Origin: a virus
Taxonomy: Duplodnaviria > Caudoviricetes
Reading direction: 5' to 3' (one strand)
Virus record (IMG/VR): IMGVR_UViG_3300015214_000004
Location: 1 to 64,000 of that record
Length of the DNA stretch: 64,000 bases
Part shown: in pieces, positions 1 through 16,092 of the stretch
Layout of the letters: every line of letters begins with the position of its first letter
Numbering within the stretch: position 1 is the stretch's first letter
The notes under the pieces: generated by a model
Database searches by the model: none
Told to the model about the DNA's origin: nothing
What the model saw: the letters and a program-made list of their open reading frames with translations, nothing else
Position numbers and translations under genes: made by a program

Positions 1-43
1 CATTTTTGATGCAAATTTCTTCACTCACCAATTACCAACAGCG

Positions 44-235
44 ATGAGAACTTTACAGGAAAAAAATCCTGAATGGTTTCAAAATGGTGTAAATATCATA
101 AACGATATTAAACGCACTAATAATACTAATGACTTTTCTCAATTGATGGAACTTATTGATAAAGGTTTTCCAACTTATCAAATAGAGCTTGGAAAAATTG
201 ATGCAAAGATTGACTTTATGGCAGGGCTTGTTTAA
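44..235 (+). CDS. Hypothetical cassette-borne protein, possibly 5'-truncated by the window edge
   Basis: ORF stops a few nt before the core site GCATAAC (242-248) of attC-like site A. Confidence 0.5.
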   Translation: MRTLQEKNPEWFQNGVNIINDIKRTNNTNDFSQLMELIDKGFPTYQIELGKIDAKIDFMAGLV

Positions 236-241
236 GCTGTT

Positions 242-373
242 GCATAACGTTACGCAGGTATGGTTAGTTTGCCATACAAAGTACAAATGATTATTAACAG
301 ATAAAATTAAATAAAATGAGTAAACTTGGATTAAACGCAGAAAACGGCAAATTAACTATACCTGATGTTATAA
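242..373. other. attC-like hairpin site A
   Basis: Left arm GCATAAC-GTTACG-CAGGTATGGTTAGTTTGCC (242-273) pairs with right arm GGCAAATTAACTATACCTG-AT-GTTATAA (346-373), with two G.T wobbles and a 72-nt loop. Confidence 0.8.
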
Positions 374-531
374 GCCGTTTATTGGCAATGAAAAATGGTG
401 AAGACTTGCCAGAATTTGACCCTAGTCAAGCAGGTGATACAACCTACTGTGTTGAATGGGGTATCAAAAAAGGTGAATGGATTACTGATGGAATTATTGA
501 TAGGTATATCGAAGAGCTAAATGGCTTATAA
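316..531 (+). CDS. Hypothetical protein of cassette 1 (367-532)
   Basis: ATG lies in the loop of site A and the stop TAA lies inside the core TTATAAC. Cassette ends GTTATAAGCC and GGCTTATAAC are perfect reverse complements. An internal Met start is also possible. Confidence 0.6.
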   Translation: MSKLGLNAENGKLTIPDVISRLLAMKNGEDLPEFDPSQAGDTTYCVEWGIKKGEWITDGIIDRYIEELNGL

Positions 532-1367
532 CGGATACGTGTAGAAGCAGTACGGCGCAAAGCACAAAAGTTGATTAAATGAACAAAAGTAATTTTTTAA
601 AAAGCCTAACGAAATGCCTAAAAAGAGAATTTTAATAGGATGTGAATTTTCTCAAATTGTAACATCGGCTTTTATTGAAAAAGGATATGATGCTTATTCA
701 TGTGACATATTACCATGCGAGGGTAAATATCCTGAAAAACATTTAAGAATGGATATTCACAAAGCTATTGATTTTATTGGATGGGATTTTATTGGACTAC
801 ATCCGCCATGTACTAAAATTACTCTCTCCGGAAATAGGCATTATGCAGAAGGTAAACCAAGACATAATGAAAGAAAAGAAGCTATTGAATGGACCATTGA
901 CTTATGGAACCACGCTTGTATGAAAGCAAGCAAAGTATATATGGAAAATCCTTTAGGTGCAATGAATAATGATGACAGATTGCCTAAGCCTCAAATTATA
1001 CAACCTTATTATTTTGGTGATAATATTCCAAAAAAAACATGTTTATGGTTGAAAAATTTGAATTATTTGATATGGTCTGATTACAATACATTATTTGAGG
1101 CAAAAACAAGTGTAGAACCGGAATATGTAATTTATAATTCGAAGAAAAACAAGAACGGTAAAAGTAAATATTCTGTTTTTGGAAAATTGGGCAAAGGACA
1201 CGGGCATGAAAGATCGGTGTTTTTTCCTGGAGTTGCAAAAGCAATGGCCGAACAATGGGGTTTTGATTTATATAACGATATGTCAATGGCTTTTTTAAAA
1301 AATGGCGAAAACCTACAAACCAAAATCGAAGCACATGAATAGTATTGCTTTTACACGGTGTTGTATG
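523..1367. other. attC-like site B with a gene in its 788-nt loop
   Basis: Left arm TAAC-GGATA-CGTGTAGAAGCAGTAC (529-553) pairs with right arm GTATTGCTTTTACACG-GT-GTTG (1342-1363). Confidence 0.75.
614..1342 (+). CDS. Small phage-type DNA cytosine-C5 methyltransferase
   Basis: N-terminal SAM-binding variant IGCEFSQ..AYSCD, catalytic HPPC, ENP motif and C-terminal AKAMAEQWG. Confidence 0.75.
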   Translation: MPKKRILIGCEFSQIVTSAFIEKGYDAYSCDILPCEGKYPEKHLRMDIHKAIDFIGWDFIGLHPPCTKITLSGNRHYAEGKPRHNERKEAIEWTIDLWNHACMKASKVYMENPLGAMNNDDRLPKPQIIQPYYFGDNIPKKTCLWLKNLNYLIWSDYNTLFEAKTSVEPEYVIYNSKKNKNGKSKYSVFGKLGKGHGHERSVFFPGVAKAMAEQWGFDLYNDMSMAFLKNGENLQTKIEAHE

Positions 1368-1439
1368 GCGAAGCGAACAGTTGCGCCGGACTGTTGGCTT
1401 CAGATTAAAGAAAAGATTTCCGGCGCAATTGCATACAAC
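1360..1439. mobile_element. 80-bp ORF-less cassette 2
   Basis: Ends GTTGTATG and CATACAAC are complementary. Internal inverted repeat TTGCGCCGGA (1381-1390) / TCCGGCGCAA (1419-1428). Confidence 0.7.
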
Positions 1440-1532
1440 GGCTGGCGGTATGGTTATGTAAGCCCTACCACATCGCTATCCAATTACAATAAAACTTTAT
1501 AGGGCTTATTAACTATACCGCTTGTTAGCGTT
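1431..1532. other. attC-like hairpin site C
   Basis: CAAC-GGCTG-GCGGTATGGTTA-TG-TAAGCCC pairs with GGGCTTA-T-TAACTATACCGC-TT-GTTA; loop about 34 nt. Confidence 0.8.
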
Positions 1533-1569
1533 TCGTTTTTGAGCGTTGGCGGTACAAAACTTAAATAAA

Positions 1570-1851
1570 ATGAATAATATTTTAGATGAAATTAATGACA
1601 ATTTGCTTGAAAAAGCAATTTATGACGAAACCGATAATGAGTTTAAAAATGGTAAGGTTTTATTTTCAGATATCGTAAATGAATTAGATAAACACAGGGT
1701 GAATAACACCTATGAAAATGCGGTTAAACCATTAATGAAATGGTTGGCTGAAAATTGTCATCCACATACAAAAGCAATAGTTGAAAGTAATCTCTCTGAA
1801 TTAGTTGAAGGAGTTAAATCTTTTAATACAGATGAATTTTTGGTTGATTGA
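1570..1851 (+). CDS. Hypothetical protein of cassette 3 (1524-1873)
   Basis: ATG at 1570 after an A-rich leader. Cassette ends are GTTAGCGTT / AACGCTAAC. The ORF is flanked by direct repeat TTGAGCGTTGGC (1539-1550, 1848-1859). Confidence 0.7.
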   Translation: MNNILDEINDNLLEKAIYDETDNEFKNGKVLFSDIVNELDKHRVNNTYENAVKPLMKWLAENCHPHTKAIVESNLSELVEGVKSFNTDEFLVD

Positions 1852-1863
1852 GCGTTGGCAAAT

Positions 1864-1962
1864 GAACGCTAACGGTCGAGTGTATGAGAAGGTTTGCTTA
1901 GATGAACTTTCAAATTACCACAAATGCTGATAGCAAACTTTCTTATACACCTTGTTATAAAC
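1864..1962. other. attC-like hairpin site D
   Basis: TAAC-GGTCGA-GTGTATGAGAAGGTTTGC pairs with GCAAACTTTCTTATACAC-CTT-GTTA as an 18-bp stem with two G.T wobbles; 35-nt loop. Confidence 0.8.
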
Positions 1963-2123
1963 TGTATTGGCGATTATGTATACGAGGTGAAAAGTATCAT
2001 AAGCCTATTGTGAATAGAGCAACCTCACGCCCTAACCACTATGGCAGCATACACAATAAGACTGAGAATAGCTTAGGAAACGCAGAAGTGTTCCACGATA
2101 CGGCAGCCAATATGGTTTATAAC
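1954..2123 (+). ncRNA. Cassette 4, candidate structured ncRNA cargo
   Basis: Ends are GTTATAAAC / GTTTATAAC. Nested stems TATTGGC/GCCAATA, TATTGTG/CACAATA and CTGAG/CTTAG, plus a possible GAGGT/ACCTC pseudoknot. Confidence 0.4.
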
Positions 2124-2570
2124 GGTCAGCAATATGCTGTCGTGGCATGAATTACGTACTAACTTTGATACGAAGAACAAATAAAATTAATTTATGAAAA
2201 GAAAATATAATAAAAAAATAAAGTGGGTGTATATGATTGTTCTTGTCTTATTAAATATATTAATTGTAATGTTATACAATGCTATTAATTTAATAGATTG
2301 GCCTTTTAATAGTTTATATATAAAAATTATTCTACATATAGTAATATGCTGGATTATTTTTTTATTATATATAGACAGGGATTCATCGATTAATTATGAT
2401 CATAAAGGACAATTCTTAACTAAAGAATTAATAGATGAATATAGAAAACAAAATGAAATGGATAATGAAAGCTGTTTTGATCAATGTAATTAATTTCATT
2501 TAATGAATAACACAGACGTTCAATCGAAGCCACTACCAAGCCATGCAGTATATTGCATGTTGTGGTGGCG
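2114..2570. other. attC-like site E with a gene in its 393-nt loop
   Basis: TAAC-GGTCA-GCAATATGCTGTCGTGGC (2120-2146) pairs with GCCATGCAGTATATTGC-AT-GTTG (2540-2562). Confidence 0.75.
2194..2493 (+). CDS. Small membrane protein (two predicted TM helices) in the loop of site E
   Basis: Basic N-terminus followed by two hydrophobic stretches. Flanked by direct repeat AATTAATTT (2185-2193, 2488-2496). Confidence 0.6.
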   Translation: MKRKYNKKIKWVYMIVLVLLNILIVMLYNAINLIDWPFNSLYIKIILHIVICWIIFLLYIDRDSSINYDHKGQFLTKELIDEYRKQNEMDNESCFDQCN

Positions 2571-2618
2571 AAGCGAACGTTTTAATGCACTACAACTATT
2601 ATATGTAATTTACATTTG
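2559..2618. promoter_or_regulatory. 38-bp mini-cassette, attI-like site and integrase promoter box
   Basis: GTTGTGGTGG..GCACTACAAC (2559-2596), then TA-TTATATGTA, near-palindrome ATGTAATTTACAT and TACATTTG (2611-2618, TAnnTTTG box). Confidence 0.6.
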
Positions 2619-2647
2619 AAATGTATTAATATATAAATAATTATGAT

Positions 2648-3481
2648 ATGAACATCGGAAAATACACATCACAACTTTCCGAATATATGGAATATAAGAA
2701 ATATGCTGTAAATAGCATTGAAAATTATATTTCGTCATTAAAAATATTTTTAGAATACTTTAATGTGAAAGCCACAAAACCAAGTGAAATATCAAAAAAT
2801 GATATTATATCATTTCTAAAGGAAATAAAATCAGTTAATACTCATAAAGCATATTTATGTGCTATTAAGTTATTTTATACTAAAATTATTAACCAACCTG
2901 AAAAATGCGCTAAAATAGAACAACCAAGAAGTAACAAAAAATTACCAATCGTCCTTACACAAGAAGAAGTTCAACGTATGTTTAATGTCTGTAATAATTT
3001 AAAACATAAGGTAATATTGAGTTTATTATATGGTTGTGGTTTAAGGGTATCCGAATTGATTAATATACAATGGTCTAACATTGACAGGTCTGCAATGATA
3101 TTGAACGTAATATCTGGAAAAGGGAAAAAAGACAGGCAAGTTGATTTACCGGATAATATTATACCATTACTTGAAAAATATTATCGTGAATACAGGTGTA
3201 AGCCATTTATATTGTCAGGGCAACTTAAAAACAAATATACGCAAGGAAGTATTCTAAAGGTTGTTAAGAAATATGCTGATTTAGCTGGCATATCAAAAAG
3301 AACATATACACACCTTATGAGGCATTGCTCATTTACGCACATGGCAGAAAACGGAGTTGATTTAGGATATATCCAGAGATCGGCAGGGCATGAAAGCCCA
3401 ATAACTACAACAAGATATATACATATGAGCCATAACCTTGTAAAAATGGCAAAATCACCATTAAACAATATAAAATTATAA
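2648..3481 (+). CDS. Tyrosine recombinase, integron-integrase-like but lacking the IntI-specific insertion
   Basis: Motifs KKLPIVLTQEEV, LLYGCGLRVSE, GKGKKDR, HLMRH, AGHES..TTRY and C-terminal KSPL. About 65 aa separate GKG from HxxR. Confidence 0.9.
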   Translation: MNIGKYTSQLSEYMEYKKYAVNSIENYISSLKIFLEYFNVKATKPSEISKNDIISFLKEIKSVNTHKAYLCAIKLFYTKIINQPEKCAKIEQPRSNKKLPIVLTQEEVQRMFNVCNNLKHKVILSLLYGCGLRVSELINIQWSNIDRSAMILNVISGKGKKDRQVDLPDNIIPLLEKYYREYRCKPFILSGQLKNKYTQGSILKVVKKYADLAGISKRTYTHLMRHCSFTHMAENGVDLGYIQRSAGHESPITTTRYIHMSHNLVKMAKSPLNNIKL

Positions 3482-3485
3482 TAAT

Positions 3486-3821
3486 ATGGAAATAGGATTA
3501 ATAGAATTAGAAATATCAAAAAATGAACATGACGGTTCACTTGCAGAGAAGATATTAAAAGCAAGGAGGTGGAAAGAAGAAAGGATTGGTTTTATTCAGG
3601 ACTGTTTAAAATACAATGTAATGACGCCAAAACAATTTTGTGACCTTACAGGCATGGTAGAATCAAATGTTACATATCTGTTAAAGCCGAACAATAAAAA
3701 AGGTTGTTTAGATACGGAGCTTGACCATTGTTATCCGTTCAGGAACAGGAAAACACCTGGTCCCCGGTTTATTGTAATTAATGAAAAGTGTATTGAATAT
3801 TTAATCAAGAAAAACAAATAG
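3486..3821 (+). CDS. Hypothetical protein, possible HTH DNA-binding domain
   Basis: MTPKQFCDLTGMVESNVTYLL is HTH-like; operon-coupled to the integrase. Confidence 0.4.
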   Translation: MEIGLIELEISKNEHDGSLAEKILKARRWKEERIGFIQDCLKYNVMTPKQFCDLTGMVESNVTYLLKPNNKKGCLDTELDHCYPFRNRKTPGPRFIVINEKCIEYLIKKNK

Positions 3822-3823
3822 TC

Positions 3824-4315
3824 ATGTACAACTCGCACATACATCATATTATTAAAATGTATCTCGAATCAAAATTTTATAAAAAATCAAAAGTCATGAA
3901 AATAACAGAAGAAACAAAGATTAAAGAACTTATCCCGGAAGGATGGAAATTAGATTCAACAATAAGAACAACAGACTCCATTAGAGACGAAGGAGAAAGT
4001 ATTCAATGTATTAAAATAGTTACTATTCCTATAAAAAAGAAACAAGAAAAAGACTTTGAGTGGTATGTGAATGAATACTATAAAAAGAACATTTGTTTAG
4101 GACGATTAAATCAGGAAAAAGATACAATTCCATCTAAAGATTGGATGGATTGGAAATTTGAATACCGCATAGGGCTGTTTAAGTTTATTTGTGATGATTT
4201 AAATTTATCTGGATATGGATATTGGAAATTATTAGACTCGATGTGTTTTGGGACGCCTGTGAAAAAAATAATGTCAATTTGTCCCATAGCATTCATTCAT
4301 TCACTATTAAAATAA
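3824..4315 (+). CDS. Hypothetical protein
   Basis: Operonic ORF with no recognised motif. Confidence 0.5.
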   Translation: MYNSHIHHIIKMYLESKFYKKSKVMKITEETKIKELIPEGWKLDSTIRTTDSIRDEGESIQCIKIVTIPIKKKQEKDFEWYVNEYYKKNICLGRLNQEKDTIPSKDWMDWKFEYRIGLFKFICDDLNLSGYGYWKLLDSMCFGTPVKKIMSICPIAFIHSLLK

Positions 4316-4321
4316 AATATT

Positions 4322-4606
4322 ATGAAAGAACATATTGACATCACAAAGGAAATTTTATCCCACAAAGAATCATTAATACAAGGTTTAGGTAAAATGTATT
4401 ACGAAGAAAAGATACATGAGGCAAAGTGGTATCTTTTAAAAATGAAAAGAGAATTAAACCACACAGATGATTTTACATACGTTGTTTATGAAAAAATAAA
4501 CTGGAACAATGAAAACTACAATAATTTATTAAAAGAAGAACTTCCAATAGAAAACATGTTATGGTTAATTGCAGGAATTGAGCTTGATAATGAAATTAAC
4601 AAATAG
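4322..4606 (+). CDS. Hypothetical protein
   Basis: Operonic ORF. Confidence 0.5.
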   Translation: MKEHIDITKEILSHKESLIQGLGKMYYEEKIHEAKWYLLKMKRELNHTDDFTYVVYEKINWNNENYNNLLKEELPIENMLWLIAGIELDNEINK

Positions 4607-4615
4607 GAAAAATGT

Positions 4616-5299
4616 ATGGATGAAAAGGATTTAATGATGGAATGGTTTAATTTCTGTTACAAGAATAATTTAAAAATAAGCCCTATTCATACGGCTTTAT
4701 ATTCGTTTTGTCATGCAACATATAAAAAATCGAATACCAGTGCATTTAGATTGGATACAAATTTGGCAATGCTGACATTAGGGATTAAAAACTATAAGAC
4801 ATTTAAAAAAGCGTTTGATGAATTGGTTTCGTTTAATAAAATATTTCTAATAGAAAAGCAAAAAAACCAATTTTCATCTAATATAATTGCTTTGGTAAAA
4901 AACGGCAAAGCAACTGGCAAAGCAATTGGCAAAGCAAAAAAAGAAGAAAAAGCGCAACGAATTAAAACAGTGTCAGTTAACAATAAATATTATTCATCAT
5001 TTTACGAATTTTGGAATTTGTACAATGGCATAAAAAGACAATGTAAAACAGAGTACGAATATCTAAAGAAAACGCATAATGATTGGAAAATATTCATTCC
5101 TGAATTAAAGGACAAATTCAAGGCGCATTTAAGGAACAATTCTGAAAAAAGGCAAAGAGGGGAGTTTGTCCCGGAGCCAAAGAGCATGAAAAACTACCTT
5201 ACAGACCGGTGTTGGGAGGAAATACAAGATGTTCCTTTAAGCAATGAAACAACAAGCGCTACATTTAGAAGGTTGGATTTAGATGATAATATTGAATAA
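4616..5299 (+). CDS. Phage replication initiator / replisome organizer
   Basis: N-terminal WFNFC..KISPIHTALY resembles Bacteroidota phage initiators. It has internal iteron-like repeats and lies directly upstream of dnaB, as in the lambda O/P arrangement. Confidence 0.7.
   Translation: MDEKDLMMEWFNFCYKNNLKISPIHTALYSFCHATYKKSNTSAFRLDTNLAMLTLGIKNYKTFKKAFDELVSFNKIFLIEKQKNQFSSNIIALVKNGKATGKAIGKAKKEEKAQRIKTVSVNNKYYSSFYEFWNLYNGIKRQCKTEYEYLKKTHNDWKIFIPELKDKFKAHLRNNSEKRQRGEFVPEPKSMKNYLTDRCWEEIQDVPLSNETTSATFRRLDLDDNIE
4887..4936. repeat. Iteron-like repeats, putative origin inside the initiator gene
   Basis: TGCTTTG-N11-CAAAGCA inverted pair, plus GGCAAAGCA at 4904, 4916 and 4928 (12-bp period). Confidence 0.65.
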
Positions 5300-6738
5300 T
5301 GGCAAAGAAAACAAACATATCGGAAATAACAGATTTTGGGAAAATTCCACCGCAGTGCATTGAAATAGAAGAAAGTTTTTTAGGTATTTTAATGGATTCG
5401 TGTGAAGTTTGGTATGATGTAAATTTAATAGTAAAGCCAGAATCATTTTATAATGATTCGCATCAGAAAATTTACGATTCGTTTACAAAGGTTATGATTG
5501 AAAGTAAAAAGTGTGATTTATTAATGCTTACTGAAAGGTTAAGGAGAGATAAAATACTTGACGAAGTTGGAGGTCCATTTTATGTTACACAATTATTGGG
5601 AAAGTCAAAATCGCAATCATACGCAGTTGATTATGCTATGATAATAAGAGATAAGTATATAAAAAGGGAACTTATAAGATATTCGAATGATATTATAACG
5701 ATGGCGTTTGATGATTCATCAAATACAAATGATTTGGTAGAATATGCTGAATCGGGTATATTTTCGATTACAAAACAAGAATCGACAAAAGAGGCAAAAC
5801 ATTTAAAAGAGCATATAAAAGAGAACATAAAAGAGATCAAGAAAGCTGTAAATAGTGAAAAGCATGTGATGGGAATACCTTCGGGTCTAAAAAAACTTGA
5901 CCGTATAACCAATGGTTGGAAAAAAGGGACATTTATATTAATAGCGGCAAGGCCAGGTATTGGTAAAAGTAGTTATATGTTGATGTTTGCAAAATCAGCC
6001 GCATTGCATGGGTATAAACCGGCTGTATTTTCTCTTGAAATGCCTGGAGATGAATTATCAATGAGATTATTGAGCACGGAAGTAAATATATCCCCTATTA
6101 TACTAAACTCAGGAAGGTTTCATAAGGATAAAATTGGTTTTATTGAAAGAAAAGCAAGTGAATTGTATTCAGTAGATATTTATATAGACGATACTCCGGG
6201 CTTAAATATTATAAATTTACGATCTAAAATAAAAAGGCTTATTCTTAAATATGGCATAGGTATTATATTTATTGATTATGTGCAATTAATGAAAGTGTTG
6301 TTAAAATATAGCAATTATAACAGGGGCGATGAAATAAGTGAAATAAGCAGGGAGTTAAAACTAATATCAAAAGAGCATGATATGCCTGTTGTAGCCCTTT
6401 CTCAGTTAAACAGATCAATTGAACTACGTTCAGGTGAAAAAAGGCCGCAATTATCCGACCTAAAACAAAGCGGTTCTTTAGAAGAAGATACGGATATGGT
6501 AATATTTATACATAGGCCGGAACTATATAATATAAAGACATATCAAGACGGCACGGATACACAAGGCACTACAAACCTAATAATAGCAAAACATAGAGGT
6601 GGGGCTATTGGTGATATTATTGTTTACAATAATGAATCAATGACAAAGATTGCCGACAACAAAGAAGAATTGGATATGCTAAATACAGGCCAACAGCCTA
6701 TATTATTCGATGCAGAAGATGAAAGTTTACCATTTTAA
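5299..6738 (+). CDS. dnaB: Replicative DNA helicase
   Basis: KIPPQCIEIE N-terminus, Walker A AARPGIGKS, FSLEM, IFIDYVQL, ALSQLNRSIE..RPQLSDLKQSGSLEED. Confidence 0.97.
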   Translation: MAKKTNISEITDFGKIPPQCIEIEESFLGILMDSCEVWYDVNLIVKPESFYNDSHQKIYDSFTKVMIESKKCDLLMLTERLRRDKILDEVGGPFYVTQLLGKSKSQSYAVDYAMIIRDKYIKRELIRYSNDIITMAFDDSSNTNDLVEYAESGIFSITKQESTKEAKHLKEHIKENIKEIKKAVNSEKHVMGIPSGLKKLDRITNGWKKGTFILIAARPGIGKSSYMLMFAKSAALHGYKPAVFSLEMPGDELSMRLLSTEVNISPIILNSGRFHKDKIGFIERKASELYSVDIYIDDTPGLNIINLRSKIKRLILKYGIGIIFIDYVQLMKVLLKYSNYNRGDEISEISRELKLISKEHDMPVVALSQLNRSIELRSGEKRPQLSDLKQSGSLEEDTDMVIFIHRPELYNIKTYQDGTDTQGTTNLIIAKHRGGAIGDIIVYNNESMTKIADNKEELDMLNTGQQPILFDAEDESLPF

Positions 6739-6749
6739 AATTAAATATT

Positions 6750-7016
6750 ATGAAAGACGAAAAACAAAAATTAGGACATGAACCGGCGTTCCCAGATGCA
6801 TTACTTGAATTTGATGAAGATAATAATGCAAATGTGAAAGAACATCACGCAGGCATGTCAAAACGGTTTTATGCTGCTTGTGCGGCTATGCAAGGAATAT
6901 GCGTTAATGCTGGTAGAAATGGAAAAACATTTGGTAATCCTTTTGAAATAGTAAGAACCGCTTATTCTATTGCAGATGAACTACTAAAACAAGAAAATGG
7001 AACAACAGATAAATAA
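6750..7016 (+). CDS. Small conserved phage protein
   Basis: EPAFP..GMSKRFYAACAAMQG..AYSIADELL resembles a common phage motif. Confidence 0.55.
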   Translation: MKDEKQKLGHEPAFPDALLEFDEDNNANVKEHHAGMSKRFYAACAAMQGICVNAGRNGKTFGNPFEIVRTAYSIADELLKQENGTTDK

Positions 7017-7410
7017 CTACTCAGCAGCAAGGACATTGGATTGGTTTTACACAAATTACGTAGAACCGATACATGAACGTATCAAATCGGCCAATGAACT
7101 GTTAAAGCCTGGGAACCCGCAGAATAAAATGACAGCGACAGAGCAGGAAAAGGCAGAGAAAGCACTTGAATCGTTGAGAAAAAAAAGTGTTGACTACGGT
7201 CATTTACATGCAAATATGAAAACCTTGATAACACAGCATGAAGGGCTTGTAAGCAAATTATGCGACATGTACTATCAATGGAAGGAAAATATATCCTATG
7301 AAGGGAGACAGCCTGTTGAGATGATGCAGTCACAGGCAGATATGTTGACCGGTATATTTACTGAATTGGGAAAGATATTGGAACCTTTAAAATTGGAAGA
7401 AAATGAATAA
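6997..7410 (+). CDS. Hypothetical coiled-coil protein
   Basis: Operonic ORF with overlapping stop/start codons. Confidence 0.5.
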   Translation: MEQQINNYSAARTLDWFYTNYVEPIHERIKSANELLKPGNPQNKMTATEQEKAEKALESLRKKSVDYGHLHANMKTLITQHEGLVSKLCDMYYQWKENISYEGRQPVEMMQSQADMLTGIFTELGKILEPLKLEENE

Positions 7411-8536
7411 AAACTTGCAACTATACAGAATACCATATGGACATGACCTATGGTATAAATTCAGGACGGTAGGGCTTACAGAAGAAGAAGCAAAGCAATT
7501 TGGACAAAAAGCGTTTGCCGGTGGAATAGGTGGAAGCGAGGCCGGTGTAATATGTGGGTTTGATAAACAATATGACAGCCCTATATGGCCATATCACCTT
7601 AAAATAGGAGACATAGACAGGAAAAAGGAAGAAAACGTAAGGATGATAACCGGAAGGGAAATAGAAGATACAGTAGCCCGTTTCTGGTCTCATTGGGGGG
7701 GCGATGAACAAAGTTTTATACAGAACATGTCAACCGCAACCATAATCAGGAAATGCCGTAATTTAAATGCTTATGTAGTAAACCCGAAATATCCGTGGTT
7801 ATTTGCATCTGTTGACAGGCTTATAAATGCAAAAGGAGGGATTAACCTGATAACAGGGGAGATGTTAAAAACAGAAGCTATATTGGAATGTAAGGCAATG
7901 GGACATTTCCGGTACACATCATTGGAAAATGGTGTTTCAAAAGCACACCTTGCCCAGATACATGTATATATGCTAATAATGGAAACAGACTATGCTGAGA
8001 TAGCCATGTTGGTAGATTCCGGTAAATTTATAGTCGAACCGATACAGAGAGACGAAACGTTCATGAAAGAAGTAATAGACACCACTAAATCGTTTTGGTA
8101 CGATAAAGTATTGCCCGGAAGAAAAGCATATGAAATGAAACAGAAATGCCTTTTAATGGGAGATTATCAAGGATCAGAGGCAAATGATGCAATAATACAA
8201 CAGATGGAACCGGAACCGGACAGTTCCCCGGCTTATAGGGAATATCTTGAAGAAAGGTATCAGAGGAACGCAGAGACACATGAAGGTTCATTTGAGGCTT
8301 TTGATTGGGCAAAAGAGGACAGGTTCTATTTGTCATTAAAAAACAAAATTGACGAAAAACAATCTTTGTTAAGGAACCGCCTGATAAAAGAAATGTCAGT
8401 AAATGCTGTAAAAAGGATTGACTTTGGAAGTTCAGGGAGTGTGGCGTGTGACAAGAAGTTCACAAACGGGCTAAAGGAAAAGCCGGACGATAAGTTTATA
8501 CAACAAGAGTTTAATAAATTGTCATGGAGGTATTGA
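7403..8536 (+). CDS. YqaJ / lambda-exonuclease family recombination nuclease
   Basis: GIGGSEAG, GREIE, HP-like NPKYPWLFASVD, ILECK and QIHVYM motifs. Confidence 0.85.
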   Translation: MNKNLQLYRIPYGHDLWYKFRTVGLTEEEAKQFGQKAFAGGIGGSEAGVICGFDKQYDSPIWPYHLKIGDIDRKKEENVRMITGREIEDTVARFWSHWGGDEQSFIQNMSTATIIRKCRNLNAYVVNPKYPWLFASVDRLINAKGGINLITGEMLKTEAILECKAMGHFRYTSLENGVSKAHLAQIHVYMLIMETDYAEIAMLVDSGKFIVEPIQRDETFMKEVIDTTKSFWYDKVLPGRKAYEMKQKCLLMGDYQGSEANDAIIQQMEPEPDSSPAYREYLEERYQRNAETHEGSFEAFDWAKEDRFYLSLKNKIDEKQSLLRNRLIKEMSVNAVKRIDFGSSGSVACDKKFTNGLKEKPDDKFIQQEFNKLSWRY

Positions 8537-8540
8537 TAAA

Positions 8541-8978
8541 ATGAGCATTAGTTTAACAGTGTACGGAGAGCCACAAGCGCTTAAAAGACATAGGTCGCAT
8601 CTTGTCGAGACAAAAGATGGAAGGAAATTCAATGTAGAATATGATCCGTCAAAAAAAGATAAGAAAAACTTTTTATATGCTGCAATTTATGACAATAAAC
8701 CAGAATGTCCATTTGAAGGACCGATAGAAACAGTTATGGTATTTTATATGCCCCGGCCAAAGAACCATTATGGTACAGGCAAAAATTCAGGCATATTAAA
8801 AAAGATAGTTGATTTCTTTCACTGGAAAAAGCCGGACGGGGACAATTTGCAGAAGTTTGTATGGGATGCTTTGAATGGAATATACTGGAAGGACGATTCA
8901 CAGATAGCAAAATGGTCAGGGATGAAGCTGTATACAGATTTACAGCCAAGAACTGAAATAGTAATTAGTCAATTATAA
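8541..8978 (+). CDS. rusA: Holliday junction resolvase, RusA family
   Basis: KKPDGDNLQKFVWDALNGIYWKDDSQI. Confidence 0.92.
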   Translation: MSISLTVYGEPQALKRHRSHLVETKDGRKFNVEYDPSKKDKKNFLYAAIYDNKPECPFEGPIETVMVFYMPRPKNHYGTGKNSGILKKIVDFFHWKKPDGDNLQKFVWDALNGIYWKDDSQIAKWSGMKLYTDLQPRTEIVISQL

Positions 8979-8998
8979 ACATTTAAACAAACAAAAAA

Positions 8999-9211
8999 AT
9001 GGAACTAAAAGTAAATTCAATTAAGTACAAAACTAAAGTGGACATTTCTATTTTATTAGAAGACGAACATGAAATTACAGCTTTAAAGAATGTATGTAGT
9101 ATTGCAGAACAGGCAATGGATGAGTGGATTAAAACTGCGGACAAAAAAAATGAATATGAAATCATTAAAAAGATATTTGAGGCAATAGGACGATCAGCGG
9201 AAAACATATAA
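8999..9211 (+). CDS. Hypothetical protein
   Basis: Operonic ORF. Confidence 0.45.
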   Translation: MELKVNSIKYKTKVDISILLEDEHEITALKNVCSIAEQAMDEWIKTADKKNEYEIIKKIFEAIGRSAENI

Positions 9212-9212
9212 T

Positions 9213-9797
9213 ATGAGTTCAGGACAAAAAATACCATTAGAAATAGCCTTAGAATATGGGAATAGATTTATGGACAAAATCAAACCCCATATCCTAAAGG
9301 GAGAGATTGCCGGGTCTATACGTAGACAATGCAAAGCAGTTGGGGATATCGAGATTGTCTGTGTCGAGAACAAAGAAAACCCATTATCTAATTTATTTGT
9401 ACCTGGTTATCCAGGAATGGTAAAAAACGGAGAAAGGATGAAAAGTTTCAAATATCCGAATAAAGGGCTTAGCTTTGAATTGTACATTGCACAACCGCAT
9501 GATTATGGAAGGATACTGGCGATAAGGACTGGATCAAGTTTTTTCAGCCATCACCAATTGGCAACTGCATGGAACAGGAGGGGTTTTTGTGGAACCGTTG
9601 ACGGTCTAAGGAAAAAATCGGAATGTGACCACAAAGGAAAAATATGGAAGATAAAACCGGAATACAAAGACAATCCAACATTGCCACCGGTTTTTGAAAC
9701 GGAAATAGACTTCTTTAACTTCCTTCAAATTGAATGGGTATTGCCAATTGACAGGAATTGGGTAAGTGATAAAAAGGAATTAAATTATAGCTTATGA
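9213..9797 (+). CDS. Minimal DNA polymerase X-family nucleotidyltransferase
   Basis: IAGSIRR..VGDIEIV and LAIRTGS match PolX palm motifs; no 8-kDa or PHP domain is present. Confidence 0.75.
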   Translation: MSSGQKIPLEIALEYGNRFMDKIKPHILKGEIAGSIRRQCKAVGDIEIVCVENKENPLSNLFVPGYPGMVKNGERMKSFKYPNKGLSFELYIAQPHDYGRILAIRTGSSFFSHHQLATAWNRRGFCGTVDGLRKKSECDHKGKIWKIKPEYKDNPTLPPVFETEIDFFNFLQIEWVLPIDRNWVSDKKELNYSL

Positions 9798-10234
9798 AAA
9801 CAATTGAATTAAAATTATTATTATCAGATGACCATTACAAATATCTTGAAAAAACAGCAAGTATATTACATATTTCATTAAATACACTGCTTAGAAATAT
9901 AATTTGGAGGCATTGTTCTGAAAATACAGGATCATCCGATATTGAGAAAAATCGTGAATCTATGAGAAATGACATTATTTCACCAGAAGAATGTTTTTCT
10001 CAGGATGACATTGATAGTGTTCATGTATACTCACGAGGATTGGTTTGTTGCTCTGTATGCTCCCCAAAAGAAATGACAATAGATGACTTGACAAAAATTG
10101 TCAACATTAAAAACCCTGCCGGGGAAAACCTTAAATGGGAACTATCAAAAGATGAAACATTCAAACAGGGAAACACAAATCCATGTGAATGTGATCAGGA
10201 TAAAAACAGGTTACACTATTTATTTAATTGTTAA
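9794..10234 (+). CDS. Hypothetical protein, possible N-terminal ribbon-helix-helix
   Basis: KTIELKLLLSDDHYKYLEKTA..SLNTLLRNII. Confidence 0.4.
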   Translation: MKTIELKLLLSDDHYKYLEKTASILHISLNTLLRNIIWRHCSENTGSSDIEKNRESMRNDIISPEECFSQDDIDSVHVYSRGLVCCSVCSPKEMTIDDLTKIVNIKNPAGENLKWELSKDETFKQGNTNPCECDQDKNRLHYLFNC

Positions 10235-10369
10235 ATCATTATATTTGCATTGTCCAATATTTAGATTTAAAATGAAAATATTTAAAATCATAGCCCCGGC
10301 AGAAAGTTTATTCATATCTCCTGATCTGAATATTGGACACCTTTCTCCGGGGTTTTTAAATTTAATATA

Positions 10370-11017
10370 ATGAGCAAAAGAATTGAATATAAAGAAAATG
10401 ATGTGATTAATGGGTTTGTCTTTATTAAAGATACAGAATATAGAGATAAGCGCAGGTTTGCAATATTTAAATGCCCTAAATGTAACAACGAGTTTGAAAC
10501 AAGAATAGATAGGATATTTAAAATAGAAACATGTGGGTGTTATAGATGGAATAAAAAACATGGATTATCGGGAACGAGGCTTCATATTATTTGGAGGAAT
10601 ATGATGGATAGGTGTTATAAATCTAATCATATTGAATATAAAAGATATGGAAATAGAAATATATCTGTTTGTAAAGCATGGTGTTCTTTTGAATGTTTTC
10701 ATGATTGGGCTATAAATAATGGTTATACAGATCAAAATACACTTGATAGAATTAATAATAATTTAGGTTATTTTCCTGATAATTGTAGGTGGACGGATAA
10801 ACATACTCAATCTGCAAACAGAAGAAAATTTAATAATAAATCATCGAAATATATTGGTGTTAGTTACCACGTGCGAAAAAGAAAATGGCAAGCAAGAATA
10901 CAGAGCAGGGGTAGAACTATATTTTACGGCACGTATGAATCAGAAATACAAGCCGCATTTGAAAGAGATAAGTTTTTAGTAAACAATAATTTATTAGAAT
11001 ATACACTTAATTTTTAA
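10370..11017 (+). CDS. HNH-like homing endonuclease with AP2 domain
   Basis: RLHIIWRNMMDRC, TLDRINNNLGYFPDNCRW, and SKYIGVSYH..KWQARI (AP2). Confidence 0.85.
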   Translation: MSKRIEYKENDVINGFVFIKDTEYRDKRRFAIFKCPKCNNEFETRIDRIFKIETCGCYRWNKKHGLSGTRLHIIWRNMMDRCYKSNHIEYKRYGNRNISVCKAWCSFECFHDWAINNGYTDQNTLDRINNNLGYFPDNCRWTDKHTQSANRRKFNNKSSKYIGVSYHVRKRKWQARIQSRGRTIFYGTYESEIQAAFERDKFLVNNNLLEYTLNF

Positions 11018-11021
11018 AATT

Positions 11022-12512
11022 ATGGAACAAGAAAAACAATCATTAGTAAGAAGTAATGTTAAGTTACCTGGAATCGTTGAAAATGCATACGATTCTATTG
11101 AAAAAATGAATCAATTTGCTGACATATTATTGGATAGCAAATTAGTTCCCGACCATTTCTACGAAAAAGGGGTAGATAAAAAACCTGATTATTCTAAAGG
11201 AAAAAGGTCGTCTGTGGCAGTTGTGCTTATTCATGCGCAACAATTAAACCTTCCTCCTATGACAGCGTTACAGCACATTATCCCTGTTAATGGTAGGCTT
11301 AGTATTAATGGAGAATTGGCCAAGACTATGATATTTAGTTCTGGTAAATTAAAACCAGGTTCATGGAAAGAAGAAGAAACAGGAAGTTTGGAAAAAGGTG
11401 ATTATGTTGTGAGTATTACAGCTGCAAGAAGTGATAATGGGGCGACATTAACAAGGTCTTTTGGTATTTCAGATGCTAAACGTGCCGGATTATGGATTGA
11501 CGAGGCTAAAACAATTGGTCAGGATGGTTGGAAGTGGAAACAATCAGCTTGGTGGAAATTTCCAAAGCGAATGTGTGGGTGGCGGGCGTTAGGCTTTCTC
11601 GCAAAAGACTTGTTTAGTGATGTTTTGATGAACACAATCACAACGGAAGAAGCGATGGACATCCCTCATGAAGATGTAACAAATATAGACCTTCCGAATG
11701 GCCAGAAAATAACAATCCCCGACAAAGAGTTCAATGCTGAACGTTCAAGGCAGCTTACCCAAAAAGCTGCCGAAGAAATAAAAAACAATAGCGATAAAGA
11801 ACAGAGAGTTGACCAGGAAAGCGGTGTTTTAGCAGGAGCATCAGAACAGGGTTATGACATAACAGCAACCCCCCCCGCGGATACCATAAAATATGAAGAA
11901 CATCTAAACGAACCGCAGGAGAAAAAGTACGTAATCAACAATTACACGATGGACGATTTACGGGAAATGGATGCTCCTGCATTGTCAGGTATACTTGATC
12001 AATACCAATTATTAAAAGAGGCCAAAGAAATCCTTCCCAAAAATAACACTGTTAAAAAGATGTTACGGATAGTCGAACTGTTTGATCAGGGTGAATTGGC
12101 AAAAGTCATTGATGAACATAAAGACAAACAGGCACAAGATAAACCTGTCAACGAAGGAATGAAAGGCATTTCAAAAGAAGAACTGAACTTTCAGGAAGAA
12201 ACCCCTGTAAACAACAATGACATTGCACCAAGCGATTTTGACAATGAAACATCAAAGAATGTATCAGGAGGAAACAATAAGTTTGGCATATCTTTCCCTG
12301 ACGTATCAGAAAGAAGCATAAAGGACGGCACAGGGTTTAAGAAGAAAAAAGAACTGTACGACAAGATGTTCAACGAAGCGTCATTGGATGCAAGGAAGTA
12401 TTCAATTATGTTGGACAAACTGCCTGAACTTCAAAAATACCGTAATCTTGAAGAATTCTGTGGGAACGCTACAAACGAAGAAGTAAATTTATTATTAAAC
12501 TCTTTGGATTGA
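11022..12512 (+). CDS. RecT-like single-strand annealing protein with long acidic C-terminus
   Basis: LNLPPMTALQHI.PVNGR and WWKFPKRMCGWRALGFLAKDLFSDVL; a YqaJ partner is in the same operon. Confidence 0.7.
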   Translation: MEQEKQSLVRSNVKLPGIVENAYDSIEKMNQFADILLDSKLVPDHFYEKGVDKKPDYSKGKRSSVAVVLIHAQQLNLPPMTALQHIIPVNGRLSINGELAKTMIFSSGKLKPGSWKEEETGSLEKGDYVVSITAARSDNGATLTRSFGISDAKRAGLWIDEAKTIGQDGWKWKQSAWWKFPKRMCGWRALGFLAKDLFSDVLMNTITTEEAMDIPHEDVTNIDLPNGQKITIPDKEFNAERSRQLTQKAAEEIKNNSDKEQRVDQESGVLAGASEQGYDITATPPADTIKYEEHLNEPQEKKYVINNYTMDDLREMDAPALSGILDQYQLLKEAKEILPKNNTVKKMLRIVELFDQGELAKVIDEHKDKQAQDKPVNEGMKGISKEELNFQEETPVNNNDIAPSDFDNETSKNVSGGNNKFGISFPDVSERSIKDGTGFKKKKELYDKMFNEASLDARKYSIMLDKLPELQKYRNLEEFCGNATNEEVNLLLNSLD

Positions 12513-12523
12513 TAAGTAAGGAC

Positions 12524-12560
12524 AAAAACACCCTATACAATATGTATTTGGGTGTTTTTT
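12524..12560 (+). terminator. Intrinsic terminator
   Basis: AAAAACACCC..GGGTGTTTTT hairpin after the recT-like gene. Confidence 0.7.
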
Positions 12561-12590
12561 ATATAAAATAATAAAATATATTAAGAAATA

Positions 12591-12623
12591 TTTGGAGATA
12601 ATAATAAATAATACTTATCTTTG
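12591..12623 (+). promoter_or_regulatory. Bacteroidota primary-sigma promoter for the RNA array
   Basis: TTTG (12591-12594), a 21-nt spacer, then TATCTTTG (12616-12623). Confidence 0.7.
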
Positions 12624-12655
12624 TCAAGAAGTTCTTTGATAAAATTCTTAAAACA

Positions 12656-13122
12656 AGAATCCGAACAGCAAAATATAAAAAACATAATTAAGGTTTATGC
12701 GAAAAAACCGGATTCTGTAAAAGGTATGAAACAGCAATATAAACGACCTGTCACGTCCGAGGCACTGGTTCGAATCCGGTACTGCTAAATGCGGTTGGTG
12801 TAGTGGTTAGCATGCGTAAAATACAATCCTGTAAAAGAACCGCAACAGCAAATAATCATTGTGTCATTGGTTCGATTCCAATTTCTTACTTTGTCGGAAT
12901 ACCTCAGGTGGTAGAGGAAATGAATAAAAATGCGGTTCTGTATAAGATCAGTTCAGCAAATTAAAAAAGATTCCGCGATTTGGAATTATAGTTTAATAGG
13001 TAGAATGCTAAATTAATAATTTAGAGGTTTCGGTTCGAATCCGTCTTAAAAGCTGATCTGTTTAAAGGGGGCGCACAGCAATTAAAAACAACAACCTGTT
13101 AAATTGTGAACATGTCCCCTGT
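12656..13122 (+). ncRNA. Tandem array of five Y-RNA-like (YrlA-like) units
   Basis: Units 12656-12718, 12722-12832, 12836-12941, 12945-13061 and 13066-13122. Each reads stem-(A/T)CAGCAA-insert-complementary stem-GT. Units 2-4 contain GGTTCGA(A/T)TCC T-arms and D-arms. Confidence 0.75.
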
Positions 13123-13152
13123 TTTATTGCTTTAATTTTAAAATTATATATT

Positions 13153-14823: not shown

Positions 14824-14826
14824 CTT

Positions 14827-14851
14827 AAAAGGGGATATGTCCCCTTTTTTT
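14827..14851 (+). terminator. Intrinsic terminator
   Basis: AAAAGGGGA-TATG-TCCCCTTTTTT. Confidence 0.8.
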
Positions 14852-14863
14852 AATTGTATAATT

Positions 14864-15010: not shown

Positions 15011-15011
15011 T

Positions 15012-15197: not shown

Positions 15198-15200
15198 ATT

Positions 15201-15890
15201 GAAATAACGGTGGGTATATGGTGCGTGGCGTTCAATTACGCACTGAATTAGATACGAAGAACTGAACTAGTAATTTATTTTTTTGCGATGGCAAAATTAA
15301 ATGGAATTGGATCTCACCAATCGGCTAATATGAAAAACGACGAATGGTTAACTCCTCCCGAATTAATTAAAAAATTAGGGCCTTTCGACTTGGATCCTTG
15401 CGCTCCAATTAATAGACCATGGGAAATGGCTAAAAAACATTTCACTATAAATGATAATGGTTTATTGCAACCTTGGAATGGTTTTGTTTGGTGTAATCCT
15501 CCATACGGATTAGAGGCGGCAAAATGGTTAGAAAAATTAGCCAATTATGGAAATGGAATTGCTTTGATATTTGCCAGGACTGAAACAGATATGTTTTTTA
15601 GGTGGGTTTGGAATAAGGCATCTTCATTACTATTTATTGAAGGTAGATTGTATTTTCATTACGTTGATGGATCCAAAGCAAAAGCAAATAGTGGGGCACC
15701 TTCTGTTTTGGTAGCTTATGGATCCGAAGCTACGGATAGGCTTAAAAACTCAGGAATTAACGGAATGCACATTTATCTTAACAGTTTTGAAAAAACTGAA
15801 GCGCGTGGGCAAAAAATAAATTACGGTCAATCTGTGATAAACTTTGAAACGGAGCACGGATAGCCATGCACTATATACCGTGTTATGTTG
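15201..15890. other. attC-like site F with a methyltransferase gene in its loop
   Basis: GAAATAAC-GGTG-GGTATATGGTGCGTGGC pairs with GCCATGCACTATATACC-GT-GTTATG. The loop start shares AATTACG.ACT..TT.GATACGAAGAAC with site E. Confidence 0.75.
15288..15863 (+). CDS. Phage DNA N6-adenine methyltransferase (Dam-like family)
   Basis: DEWLTP, FDLDPCA, WCNPPYG, LIFARTET and SGAPS motifs. Confidence 0.9.
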   Translation: MAKLNGIGSHQSANMKNDEWLTPPELIKKLGPFDLDPCAPINRPWEMAKKHFTINDNGLLQPWNGFVWCNPPYGLEAAKWLEKLANYGNGIALIFARTETDMFFRWVWNKASSLLFIEGRLYFHYVDGSKAKANSGAPSVLVAYGSEATDRLKNSGINGMHIYLNSFEKTEARGQKINYGQSVINFETEHG

Positions 15891-15921
15891 TCGTTTTAAT
15901 GCAACATAACAGTTATATGTA
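15882..15921. other. 29-bp mini-cassette followed by a second attI-like site
   Basis: GTTATGTTG..CAACATAAC (15882-15910), then AG-TTATATGTA, the same spacing as at 2594-2607. Confidence 0.6.
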
Positions 15922-16092
15922 TTTATCAACAGATCAGGATACATAAAGTAATCCGGTTGTTAAATAAAATACAAGGCTTAAATAATAATTTGGAGCAACA
16001 CAGTATAAGATATTCCCATGCCATAAAAGCAATGGAGGAATTAAAAGATTATATTGAATCCGTAACAACTAATAAATAGCTTACATCAAAAA

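Follow-up and report, generated by a model that had tools for sequence, protein, structure and literature searches.

Four genes at the tips of long hairpins in a phage genome (the window, the 64,000-nt stretch analysed) are flanked by direct repeats of 9-12 bp, which raises the question of whether such genes had been captured into empty hairpins with duplication of the target, as an initial annotation of this DNA proposed. How integron cassettes are first assembled is, to our knowledge, an open question for classical integrons. We consider it probable (roughly 0.75) that the region is an integron-like cassette array in a complete 74.8-kb phage genome, in which the short repeats are conserved parts of a frame flanking the cargo. 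The host is most likely of the Flavobacteria type, judged solely via relatives.

An integron-like array next to a recombinase gene

The array extends from the genome end, by way of the terminal repeat, as far as window position 2596 and is followed by a small Xer/IntI-like recombinase gene (Table 1). At least eight attC-like sites lie inside 3.4 kb spanning the terminal repeat and belong to the same sequence family as those of Polaribacter phage P12002L. The attC-type palindromes comprise sites A-F and two further sites at the genome end, and they carry the attC hallmark of an imperfect palindrome with outer RYYYAAC/GTTRRRY cores and inner L boxes, the arms being cognate and co-varying. By sequence relationship the array family is one already published as the CALIN of P12002L (PMC9892861), a phage sharing the hairpin, leader and M-like sequences of the window array, and this integron-like cassette family is widespread among Flavobacteria-type phages. 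Searching window positions 1-17000 against Rfam in E-value mode returned one tRNA and one chance match, with none at the cassette sites.

Table 1 Features of the cassette array and of the lone cassette F (window coordinates)
Feature	Position	Strand	Description
Site A	242..373	+	19 consecutive pairs; AAC box 242-248, left arm 255-273, right arm 346-364, GTT box 367-373
Site B	525..1367	+	Gene in hairpin loop; 16 consecutive pairs (538-553 with 1342-1357); AAC box 525-532, left arm 538-553, leader 554-613, right arm 1342-1357, GTT box 1360-1367
Site B AT-only inverted repeat	593-606/1288-1301	+	
Site B MTase ORF	614-1342	+	PHROG 757 DNA methyltransferase, 8.7e-48
Gene-less body	1360..1439	+	Flanked by complementary GTT/AAC boxes GTTGTATG / CATACAAC; read off the sequence
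Site C	1433..1532	+	Short hairpin, gene-less; terminal GTT box GTTAGCGTT at 1524-1532
Left frame of D	1533..1569	+	TCGTTTT, box M 1539-1550, 19-nt leader to ATG
Cargo ORF of D	1570..1851	+	93 aa; PHROG 16206, function unknown
Right frame of D	1848..1873	+	Box M' 1848-1859, AAATG, AAC box AACGCTAAC 1865-1873
Site D	1865..1962	+	Short hairpin; arms 1880-1898 and 1932-1950, 19 consecutive pairs; GTT box 1954-1962
Body between complementary boxes	1954..2123	+	Boxes 1954-1971 and 2106-2123 (I5, 18 nt, 89% complementary)
Site E	2117..2567	+	Gene in loop, box M absent; AAC box 2117-2123, left arm 2127-2149, leader 2150-2193, right arm 2541-2558, GTT box 2559-2567
Site E AT-only inverted repeat (I24)	2179-2192/2488-2501	+	
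Site E ORF	2194-2493	+	99 aa; hydrophobic-rich N-terminal half; weak match to a two-TM membrane-protein family, TIGR04570
Terminal mini hairpin	2559..2596	+	Variant with GCGAAGCGAAC ahead of the conserved CGTTTTAATG loop
Tyrosine recombinase, Xer/IntI-like	2648..3481	+	277 aa; PF00589 1.8e-32, PF13495
Lone cassette F	15202..15910	+	17 consecutive pairs (15213-15229 with 15863-15879); AAC box 15202-15208, left arm 15213-15229, then leader; right arm 15863-15879, GTT box 15882
Cassette F inverted repeat	15270-15286/15809-15824	+	
Cassette F boxes M and M'	15283-15296; 15801-15814	+	Dam ATG inside M
Cassette F Dam ORF	15288-15863	+	
Cassette F hairpins	about 15783-15800; 15882-15910	+	GAA-loop hairpin; mini hairpin

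Each cassette would close on itself twice, its GTT box pairing with its own AAC box and the inner arms L'' and L' pairing with each other, and this double closure would create two loops, either of which may hold the cargo ORF. In the ordinary type, represented by D, the gene sits between the GTT and AAC boxes, and in the other type (B, E and F) between the inner arms. The pairing partner of the D AAC box is the GTT box that ends site C, to which it is complementary. Site D is almost identical in one related locus, and its summed contig depth in landfill and biofilm runs is 290-480. At the left of the array, an ORF (316-531) starts inside the site A loop and reads out via the right arm, and the GTT box of this site (367-381) is complementary to 518-532 (inverted repeat I14). 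The GCGAAGCGAAC motif held by the gene-less body 1360-1439 recurs at 2566, and a doubtful ORF (1902-2150) overlaps the body 1954-2123. The terminal mini hairpin, 95.6% identical to that of Nonlabens phage P12024L, is followed by an attI-like TATTATATGTA. Its family was found in more than 118 contexts, 103 with 6/6 complementary stems, in a sample skewed to cassettes with a gene between the inner arms.

Hairpins that enclose whole genes

The location of cargo genes at hairpin tips was borne out, the genes lying between the L arms (B, E and F) or between complementary R boxes (D), an arrangement kept in relatives. Whole ORFs are enclosed by spans of 843 nt (B), 451 nt (E) and 683 nt (F), and 59 of 70 related sites are longer than 141 nt. 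Pairing of the distant arms is clearly conserved in homologs: own arms match at a mean of 15.7/16 positions in a search that required at least 15/16, whereas cross pairs have a mean of 8.0 with 0.7% reaching 15, and 113 G.T pairs versus 2 A.C pairs point to a single folding strand. The arms of site E form 11 pairs plus 4-5 more with a bulge. Folded as DNA, both stems of cassette F enclose the gene on the + strand (-89.5 kcal/mol, z -4.8; - strand -72.2). Gene-holding hairpins are common in relatives, whereas classical integron sites never show genes inside. In this phage family a cassette gene can occupy either loop of the folded site, so recombination sites with 0.4-0.8-kb loops are apparently tolerated.

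The cargo looks as if it were foreign to the frame, the ORFs appearing to have been put into a pre-existing one. Homology of the site B MTase to free MTases stops at residue 216 of 242, and homologues of the Dam protein (70-73% identity), which reside in ordinary operons, end at residue 164 of 191; both window proteins extend 26-27 codons into the frame trailer, where free-standing homologues stop earlier. The site B leader is homologous to the leaders of MTase cassettes in two related loci, and sites E and F have a leader in common. As cargo, the two orphan DNA methyltransferases (B and F) fit anti-restriction gene exchange among phages.

Origin of the direct repeats

The repeats lie where they had been placed, TTTTTTAAAAA at 593 and 1291 (B), AATTAATTT at 2185 and 2488 (E), TTGAGCGTTGGC at 1539 and 1848 (D) and, at site F, GCGATGGCAAAA at 15285 and GCGTGGGCAAAA at 15803, with an inner inverted repeat at 15270/15809. 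For each of 86 ORFs of the genome we compared the 85-nt windows at its two ends and recorded their longest shared exact repeat; the median length was 7, and 16 of the 86 ORFs had one of at least 9. The 12-mer of D is the genome maximum (shuffle P 0.002), and the 11-mer of B is tied second (P 0.0065) yet low-complexity and palindromic. The 9-mer of E is unremarkable (P 0.14), and the repeat at F has just 7 exact bases, or 10/12 with mismatches. The comparison with shuffled sequence suggested by the initial annotation therefore came out divided, two of the four repeats exceeding chance and only that of E lying at chance level.

The four repeats are of two kinds. Those of B and E follow automatically from the inverted repeats I21 and I24, the centres of which equal their own reverse complement, and TTTTTTAAAAA and AATTAATTT read as direct repeats because they are the self-complementary centres of AT-only inverted repeats. 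Those of D and F are copies of one fixed box, M, with consensus TGAGCG-W-TGGCAAA.

Box M is constant across unrelated cargo

Box M holds TGA and ATG/TTG in register: it carries the stop of the preceding ORF and, in many cassettes, the start of the following one, so that what varies from cassette to cassette is precisely one ORF. In D, the right box supplies, as its first codon, the TGA that stops the cargo ORF. To the left of an ORF M adjoins the GTT box, and to the right it adjoins the AAC box or the inner inverted repeat.

Across the contigs compared, M was shown to be constant while the cargo differs. The 22-mer at 1852-1873, which samples the one subfamily with AAC box AACGCTAAC, has exact matches in more than 119 metagenome contigs, preceded by 81 distinct protein tails, and in 68 of 90 contexts the ORF ahead of it shares its reading frame with M'. 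Among 60 complete cassettes picked solely by their right end, 42 also have the left end (window 1524-1550), with column identity of at least 90% in the left frame through M. Forty cassettes carry 31 unrelated ORF clusters, and in 37 of them M lies 16-19 nt from the ATG. The frame is found in phage contigs of brine, lake, ocean, sediment and landfill samples. One variable ORF between invariant boxes, with dozens of unrelated ORFs, is the layout expected of a plug-in system.

Cassette D can be described as a mini hairpin with its conserved loop (TCGTTTT / AATG) split by M-ORF-M, as are the cassettes at L218:7358, L079:54, L085:4131 and L251, and the AAC box of the D subfamily combines with M' into a 9-8-9 inverted-repeat site (window 1848-1873). 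In long elements picked irrespective of M, M' lies 73-88 nt ahead of the GTT box and M 69-76 nt past the left arm, and M is discernible on both sides in about half (11/22). Box M is absent from B and E and is therefore not obligatory. Scanning IMG/VR with a 15-mer of M gave mainly chance matches in unrelated GC-rich contigs along with ~35 family contexts, and the leader pattern GCGTTGGCGGTGCAAAAC gave two matches there, one of them by chance.

Gain and loss of cassettes

As read from their genomes, the cultured sister phages P12002L/S and P12024L/S were shown to gain or lose whole cassettes at the AAC/GTT boxes. P12002S has one whole additional cassette relative to P12002L, with the junction inside TAACGT. 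At the position where P12024S carries an MTase module flanked left and right by M, P12024L shows a plain mini hairpin lacking M, the difference being bounded by GTTGT and ACAAC. Gene-free alleles in these pairs were thus shown to be without M, and filled alleles to have two copies. The G/TT crossover characteristic of core sites was observed in relatives only.

More than 100 gene-less mini hairpins contain no M. A single-M empty site had no match in IMG/VR or, with the stems of D itself as query, in JGI metagenomes, and no gene-less inner-repeat/M/inner-repeat element occurs in 2.8 Mb of related loci. The 41-bp mini-cassette that would remain on removing one repeat plus the gene is arithmetically correct, but such an element was nowhere found in IMG/VR or the JGI metagenomes. 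Reads of two landfill runs containing the phage, one of them the probable source, include joints that leave out ORF 1570-1851 and a further one that leaves out 15229-15862, with sides of 20-30 nt and unknown intervening content; these are probably other cassettes with identical flanks and were therefore excluded from the count of empty alleles. Around site F, the sole relative of the 556-aa neighbour has no shared downstream synteny, and no allele was obtained.

Possible roles of box M

Tentatively, M may be the point where ORFs pass from one standard frame to another, or an accessory recombinase-binding box. Exchange at M would proceed by homologous or copy-choice recombination between co-infecting phages.

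About as likely is that M is an expression signal only, a stop-start linker at the transcript start with no role in DNA exchange. The left copy would then mark the region of transcript or translation start, and the right copy would give a stop and serve the next gene, M appearing as a direct repeat because every gene of the array needs one. The in-register TGA and ATG/TTG, the narrow spacing to the ATG and the frequency of upstream ORFs in frame with M' agree with this, as do a T-run ahead of left copies, short GNRA-type hairpins after them and the next ATG about 40-100 nt past M'. However, the Bacteroidota -33/-7 spacing does not match, and at site F the right copy is followed by an inverted repeat and the right arm rather than by a gene. 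We rejected M as part of a -33/-7 promoter, since the spacings are off and the T-run before M comes with no TTTG at the proper distance; a small uORF from the TTG of M, since frames are inconsistent among loci; and M' as a local stand-in partner of the AAC box, which fits the D subfamily (AGCGTT/AACGCT) and fails with other AAC boxes.

It is unlikely that the joint formed by M belongs to an ORF-precise loading step that makes new cassettes, in which a bare ORF, from start to stop codon, would be placed, by copying or recombination, between the two M boxes of a standard self-closing frame, in either loop; were it true, this phage family would reveal the birth of integron-type cassettes.

Quite unlikely, too, is a lambda-like site-specific recombination core at M, by which a circle of one ORF and one M would integrate via the Xer-like recombinase. 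An invariant repeat of 11-16 nt placed precisely at the boundary of constant and variable sequence would suit such a core, and the 9-8-9 site of the D subfamily is shaped like that of a tyrosine recombinase. Against it, the excision product, a single-M frame, is missing from IMG/VR, the JGI metagenomes and the related loci, natural gain and loss falls at the AAC/GTT boxes and not at M, co-variation of M' with the AAC box is missing from other subfamilies, and M is not palindromic.

The initial proposal, that a cut-and-fill or transposition-like process inserts ORFs into empty hairpin tips and duplicates a 9-12 bp target, is very unlikely and largely refuted. The D-type loops split by M-ORF-M speak for it, as do the extension of the L085:4131 repeat into the loop half CGTTTTT, as expected of a duplicated target, and cargo ORFs that run into the frame and have homologues outside such frames. 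It fails because the repeat is identical in dozens of cassettes with unrelated ORFs and because the gene-free alleles of P12002L/S and P12024L/S, like the gene-less mini hairpins, hold no copy; the databases and related loci searched lack a single-M site, and the repeats of B and E are centres of inverted repeats, that of E at chance level. We found neither a single copy in an empty allele nor a repeat sequence that depends on the site, and no empty allele of the flank-repeat-flank form, an absence named at the outset as telling against capture.

Comparison with known systems

Short direct repeats at the ends of inserted segments are familiar from the target-site duplications of transposons and from the 15-bp common core of lambda att, and either process leaves one copy at the empty site. 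Here, by contrast, empty alleles have 0 copies and the repeat sequence is independent of the insertion site. The Vibrio cholerae repeats (VCRs) of sedentary chromosomal integrons are conserved sites around many unrelated small ORFs, so a conserved flank with a variable ORF does not argue for recent duplication. VCRs keep their sequence inside a single host lineage, whereas the frame described here is common to phage contigs from many environments and adds a direct-repeat box on either side of the ORF.

In T4-type phages, PeSL (promoter-early stem-loop) regulatory cassettes have short conserved motifs and a stem-loop around non-essential ORFs, and their recombination leads to gene shuffling and mini-circles (PMC2839356, PMC4122927). 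By analogy M may act similarly, although PeSLs are promoter-terminator units without a dedicated recombinase or an attC-like double palindrome and show no relationship in sequence.

The recombinase gene comes after the array in the same orientation, 51 nt past the terminal mini hairpin, a layout repeated in four related loci, and in many loci retrieved purely by DNA motif a homologue stands directly behind the terminal mini hairpin. Its best match is the NCBIfam XerA/IntI-like model (174.7 bits, cut-off 220), ahead of the integron-integrase model TIGR02249 (147.7 bits in two stretches, cut-off 265) and NF011946 (101.7 bits, cut-off 435), so that the 277-aa protein does not pass the family models of an integron integrase with the IntI-specific extra domain. 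Nor does this array have the classical layout of a divergent intI with attI and Pc in between. Classical attC sites are 57-141 bp long (PMC3053210); sites C and D are of this length with the gene outside the palindrome, and B, E and F are not.

CALINs are integrase-less attC clusters in virulent phages including P12002L, one site of which was reportedly recombined by IntI1 (PMC9892861). The array described here differs from integrons in the size of its recombinase, its score below the integron-integrase cut-off and its downstream position; in sites that are mostly longer than 141 nt and often enclose whole genes; in cargo framed by box M; and in the P12002L/S crossover box, G/TT on the strand opposite the genes. 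It resembles integrons and CALINs in its arrays of single-gene units, its imperfect palindromes with outer AAC/GTT cores and inner arms, the good folding of just one strand, the complementarity of a unit's GTT box to its own AAC box, the linked tyrosine recombinase and cargo rich in DNA methyltransferases. A gene in either loop and one ORF between boxes add detail to a system published so far only in part, as a CALIN.

Array anatomy and the associated recombinase

The source IMG/VR virus record (74,838 bp, 34 % G+C, a 123-bp terminal repeat, complete according to CheckV), of which bases 1-64000 are analysed here, carries a series of imperfect palindromes, each on the + strand, that runs from record base ~74,040 across the terminal repeat to window position 2596. 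Each follows the order AAC box, GG, left arm, loop, right arm, T/TT and GTT box. The tyrosine recombinase gene beside this array gave sub-cut-off scores for XerA/IntI-like, XerD and integron-integrase models (NCBIfam), the last match being split into two stretches, which is compatible with an absent IntI insert. In many loci picked by DNA motif alone, a homologue of this recombinase lies directly 3′ of the terminal mini hairpin, so the small recombinase is part of the system. AAC, two bases and then TTATATGTA closes both the array (2594-2607) and lone cassette F (15908-15925), and this end looks like a candidate point of new-cassette addition. We also observed a perfect 14-bp inverted repeat (18813-18826/19990-20003), AAC/GTT-flanked and without the arm consensus of the cassette family, spanning 1.2 kb with minus-strand ORFs.

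Coordinates of features associated with the attC-like array
Feature	Position	Remarks
Inverted repeat I21	593-606/1288-1301	contains the site B repeat
Inverted repeat I24	2179-2192/2488-2501	contains the site E repeat
Tyrosine recombinase gene, 277 aa	2648-3481	same strand as array, downstream; Pfam Phage_integrase and SAM_4 domains
Lone cassette unit, site F	15202-15910	outside the main array

Genes inside hairpins

The initial annotation placed cargo genes in hairpin loops between short direct repeats; each of the four repeat pairs that it named, like its inner inverted repeat, is present at the coordinates given, and the arms of sites B, E and F do pair across whole ORFs. Sixteen consecutive pairs span the 729-nt methyltransferase ORF at B and 17 the Dam ORF at F, while the arms of E form 11 + 4-5 pairs. 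Folded as single-stranded DNA, 15200-15912 closes both its outer arms and an AT-only inner repeat round Dam, at -89.5 kcal/mol (z -4.8) for the + strand versus -72.2 (z -2.65) for the - strand. Among relatives each arm is specific to its partner: a search demanding at least 15 pairs returned own arms with a mean of 15.7 of 16 pairs, against 8.0 for cross pairs, 0.7 % of which reach 15. These arms include 113 G.T and 2 A.C pairs, so good folding is limited to the gene-sense strand, the strand on which the recombinase would act in folded form.

The mini hairpin downstream of the GTT box, composed of GTT, six bases, TCGTTTTAATG, the complement of those six bases and AAC, served to gather 108 contexts; its stems are perfect in 103/118. 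A cognate left arm was found upstream in 70 of the 108, with spans of ~110 nt (n = 11), 174-290 nt (n = 28), 317-484 nt (n = 14) and 507-1786 nt (n = 17). Despite the bias of this sample toward cassettes whose other loop is empty, these spans show gene-holding hairpins to be common among relatives.

At site A (242-373) a small ORF (316-531) begins in the loop and runs out through the right arm and GTT box. It shares this loop-start, arm-exit course with related loci L033, L021, L127, L022 and L077 of the ~190-nt hairpin class. Throughout the class the GTT box is always a valine codon (..PDVIS.. in the window, ..GVSN.. or ..DVSN.. elsewhere), and a crossover at this box would give an in-frame fusion of N-terminal and C-terminal coding segments. 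At 1368-1378, at 2568-2578 and in Nonlabens phage P12024L (L003:2186-2196), GCGAAGCGAAC stands in place of, or ahead of, the conserved loop of the mini hairpin. GCGAAGC is an unusually stable DNA mini-hairpin, and GCGAAGCGAAC at this position would fit a single-stranded DNA stage. The 82-aa ORF 1902-2150 starts 43 nt past the right copy of the D repeat, overlapping both site D and the body that follows; its first 19 residues match related locus L161 at 84 %, which may reflect hairpin-loop conservation rather than coding.

Repeats at the ORF boundaries

For 86 ORFs of the genome we compared 85-nt windows from the two ORF ends and recorded the longest exact repeat that they share; the median was 7, and 16 ORFs had repeats of at least 9. 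The 12-mer at D is the genome maximum and exceeds chance. The 11-mer at B is joint second, but is the palindromic centre of I21. The 9-mer at E, lying within I24, is ordinary. Since the centres of I21 and I24 (TTTTTAAAAA and AATTAATT) are their own reverse complements, each inverted repeat must double as a direct repeat. The F repeat amounts to 7 exact bases, or 10/12 allowing mismatches.

A conserved box frames the cargo

At D and F the repeat is a single conserved box, here termed M (right copy, M′). The pattern of a T-run, TGAGCG-W-TGGCAAAT, a short hairpin and ATG occurs in ~35 unrelated IMG/VR contigs, often behind a conserved leader starting directly after a GTT box and ahead of DNA methyltransferase genes. 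In long gene-holding hairpins of other phages a second M lies 73-88 nt 5′ of the GTT box, and behind it comes a sequence complementary to the AT-rich stretch ahead of the left copy, exactly the layout of site F. Both copies are identical over 15-16 nt at two related loci (L220 and L077), and M is recognisable on both sides in ~11 of 22 long elements picked regardless of M. It reads TGA GCG (A/T)TG GCA AAT, that is stop, three bases, start; M itself supplies both the ATG of Dam (15288) and the TGA that ends ORF 1570-1851.

Brine, lake, ocean, sediment and landfill metagenomes contain more than 119 contigs with an exact copy of the 22-mer 1852-1873 (M′, AAATG, AAC box). These give 90 distinct contexts, with 81 different protein tails ahead of the 22-mer. 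The ORF upstream shares its frame with GCG TTG GCA AAT GAA CGC TAA in 68 of the 90, the preceding triplet being NGW, which is TGA in 11 cases. The left frame (1524-1550; GTT box GTTAGCGTT, TCGTTTT, M) is also present in 42 of 60 complete-ORF cassettes with the 22-mer. Alignment columns of the 40 best cassettes stay at 90 % identity or more up to the end of M and drop to background beyond it, the distance from M to the ATG is 16-19 nt in 37, and the ORFs (43-142 aa) form 31 unrelated clusters. Most D-subfamily cargo proteins (metagenome loci L257-L375) share the frame-encoded last six residues ALANER, as mutation has often turned the TGA of M′ into a sense codon. Contigs similar to site D (1870-1958) reach a combined depth of 290-480 in landfill/biofilm runs versus ~20 for the phage, and therefore many other genomes in those samples carry near-identical sites.

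In cassette D, M-ORF-M is set into the mini-hairpin loop between TCGTTTT and AATG, as in 6-10 other cassettes with differing stems and genes. Dam homologues with 70-73 % identity are found in ordinary, hairpin-free operons and stop at residue 164 of 191, those of the B methyltransferase stop at residue 216 of 242, and both window ORFs extend into the trailer. This foreign cargo and the layout of D therefore indicate that ORFs were at some time put into standard frames; the repeat, however, is part of the frame or module, not of a duplicated target. A methyltransferase gene of Cellulophaga phage phi12:1 (L379) matches Polaribacter phage P12002L (L256, 30078-30848) at 88-91 % in two pieces confined to the gene's two ends, the phage being otherwise unrelated, which suggests mosaic exchange within cargo.

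Empty alleles and target duplication

Capture into empty hairpins with 9-12 bp target duplication, as initially proposed, needs one M at the empty site, and the empty alleles of cultured sister phages hold none. Polaribacter phage P12002S differs from P12002L by one whole extra cassette (hairpin, GTT box, leader, M, methyltransferase, AAC box). The junction falls within the AAC-box sequence TAACGT, which reads G|TT on the strand that does not carry the genes, and only ~5 nt are repeated. In P12024L a plain mini hairpin with 95.6 % identity to window 2558-2601 occupies the place at which P12024S carries 878 nt, among them a methyltransferase module flanked on either side by M; GTTGT and ACAAC bound the difference. 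The predicted single-M empty site had no match in IMG/VR, nor within 2.8 Mb of related loci, nor, with D's own stems, in JGI metagenomes. Together with the frame data above, these comparisons show cassette gain and loss at AAC/GTT boxes in relatives, empty alleles without M, and the constancy of M. The observation is partly confirmed: the anatomy is real, but capture with duplication is not supported.

M may act as a joint at which frames exchange ORFs, as an accessory binding box, or as a stop-start linker for expression. Reading M′ as a local partner is valid in the D subfamily only; as a recombination core site M lacks its predicted product, and as a promoter its spacing does not fit Bacteroidota.

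Comparison with known systems

Clusters of attC sites without an integrase have been described in virulent phages by Qi et al., including one in P12002L with methyltransferase cargo, one of whose sites was recombined by IntI1 (PMC9892861). Hairpin, leader and M-like sequences of the window array also occur in P12002L, and this type of array is therefore partly published. We found no earlier account of box M, its ORF-precise placement or the two alternative cargo loops. Classical attC sites measure 57-141 bp (PMC3053210), whereas the gene-holding hairpins described here reach up to 1786 nt in relatives.
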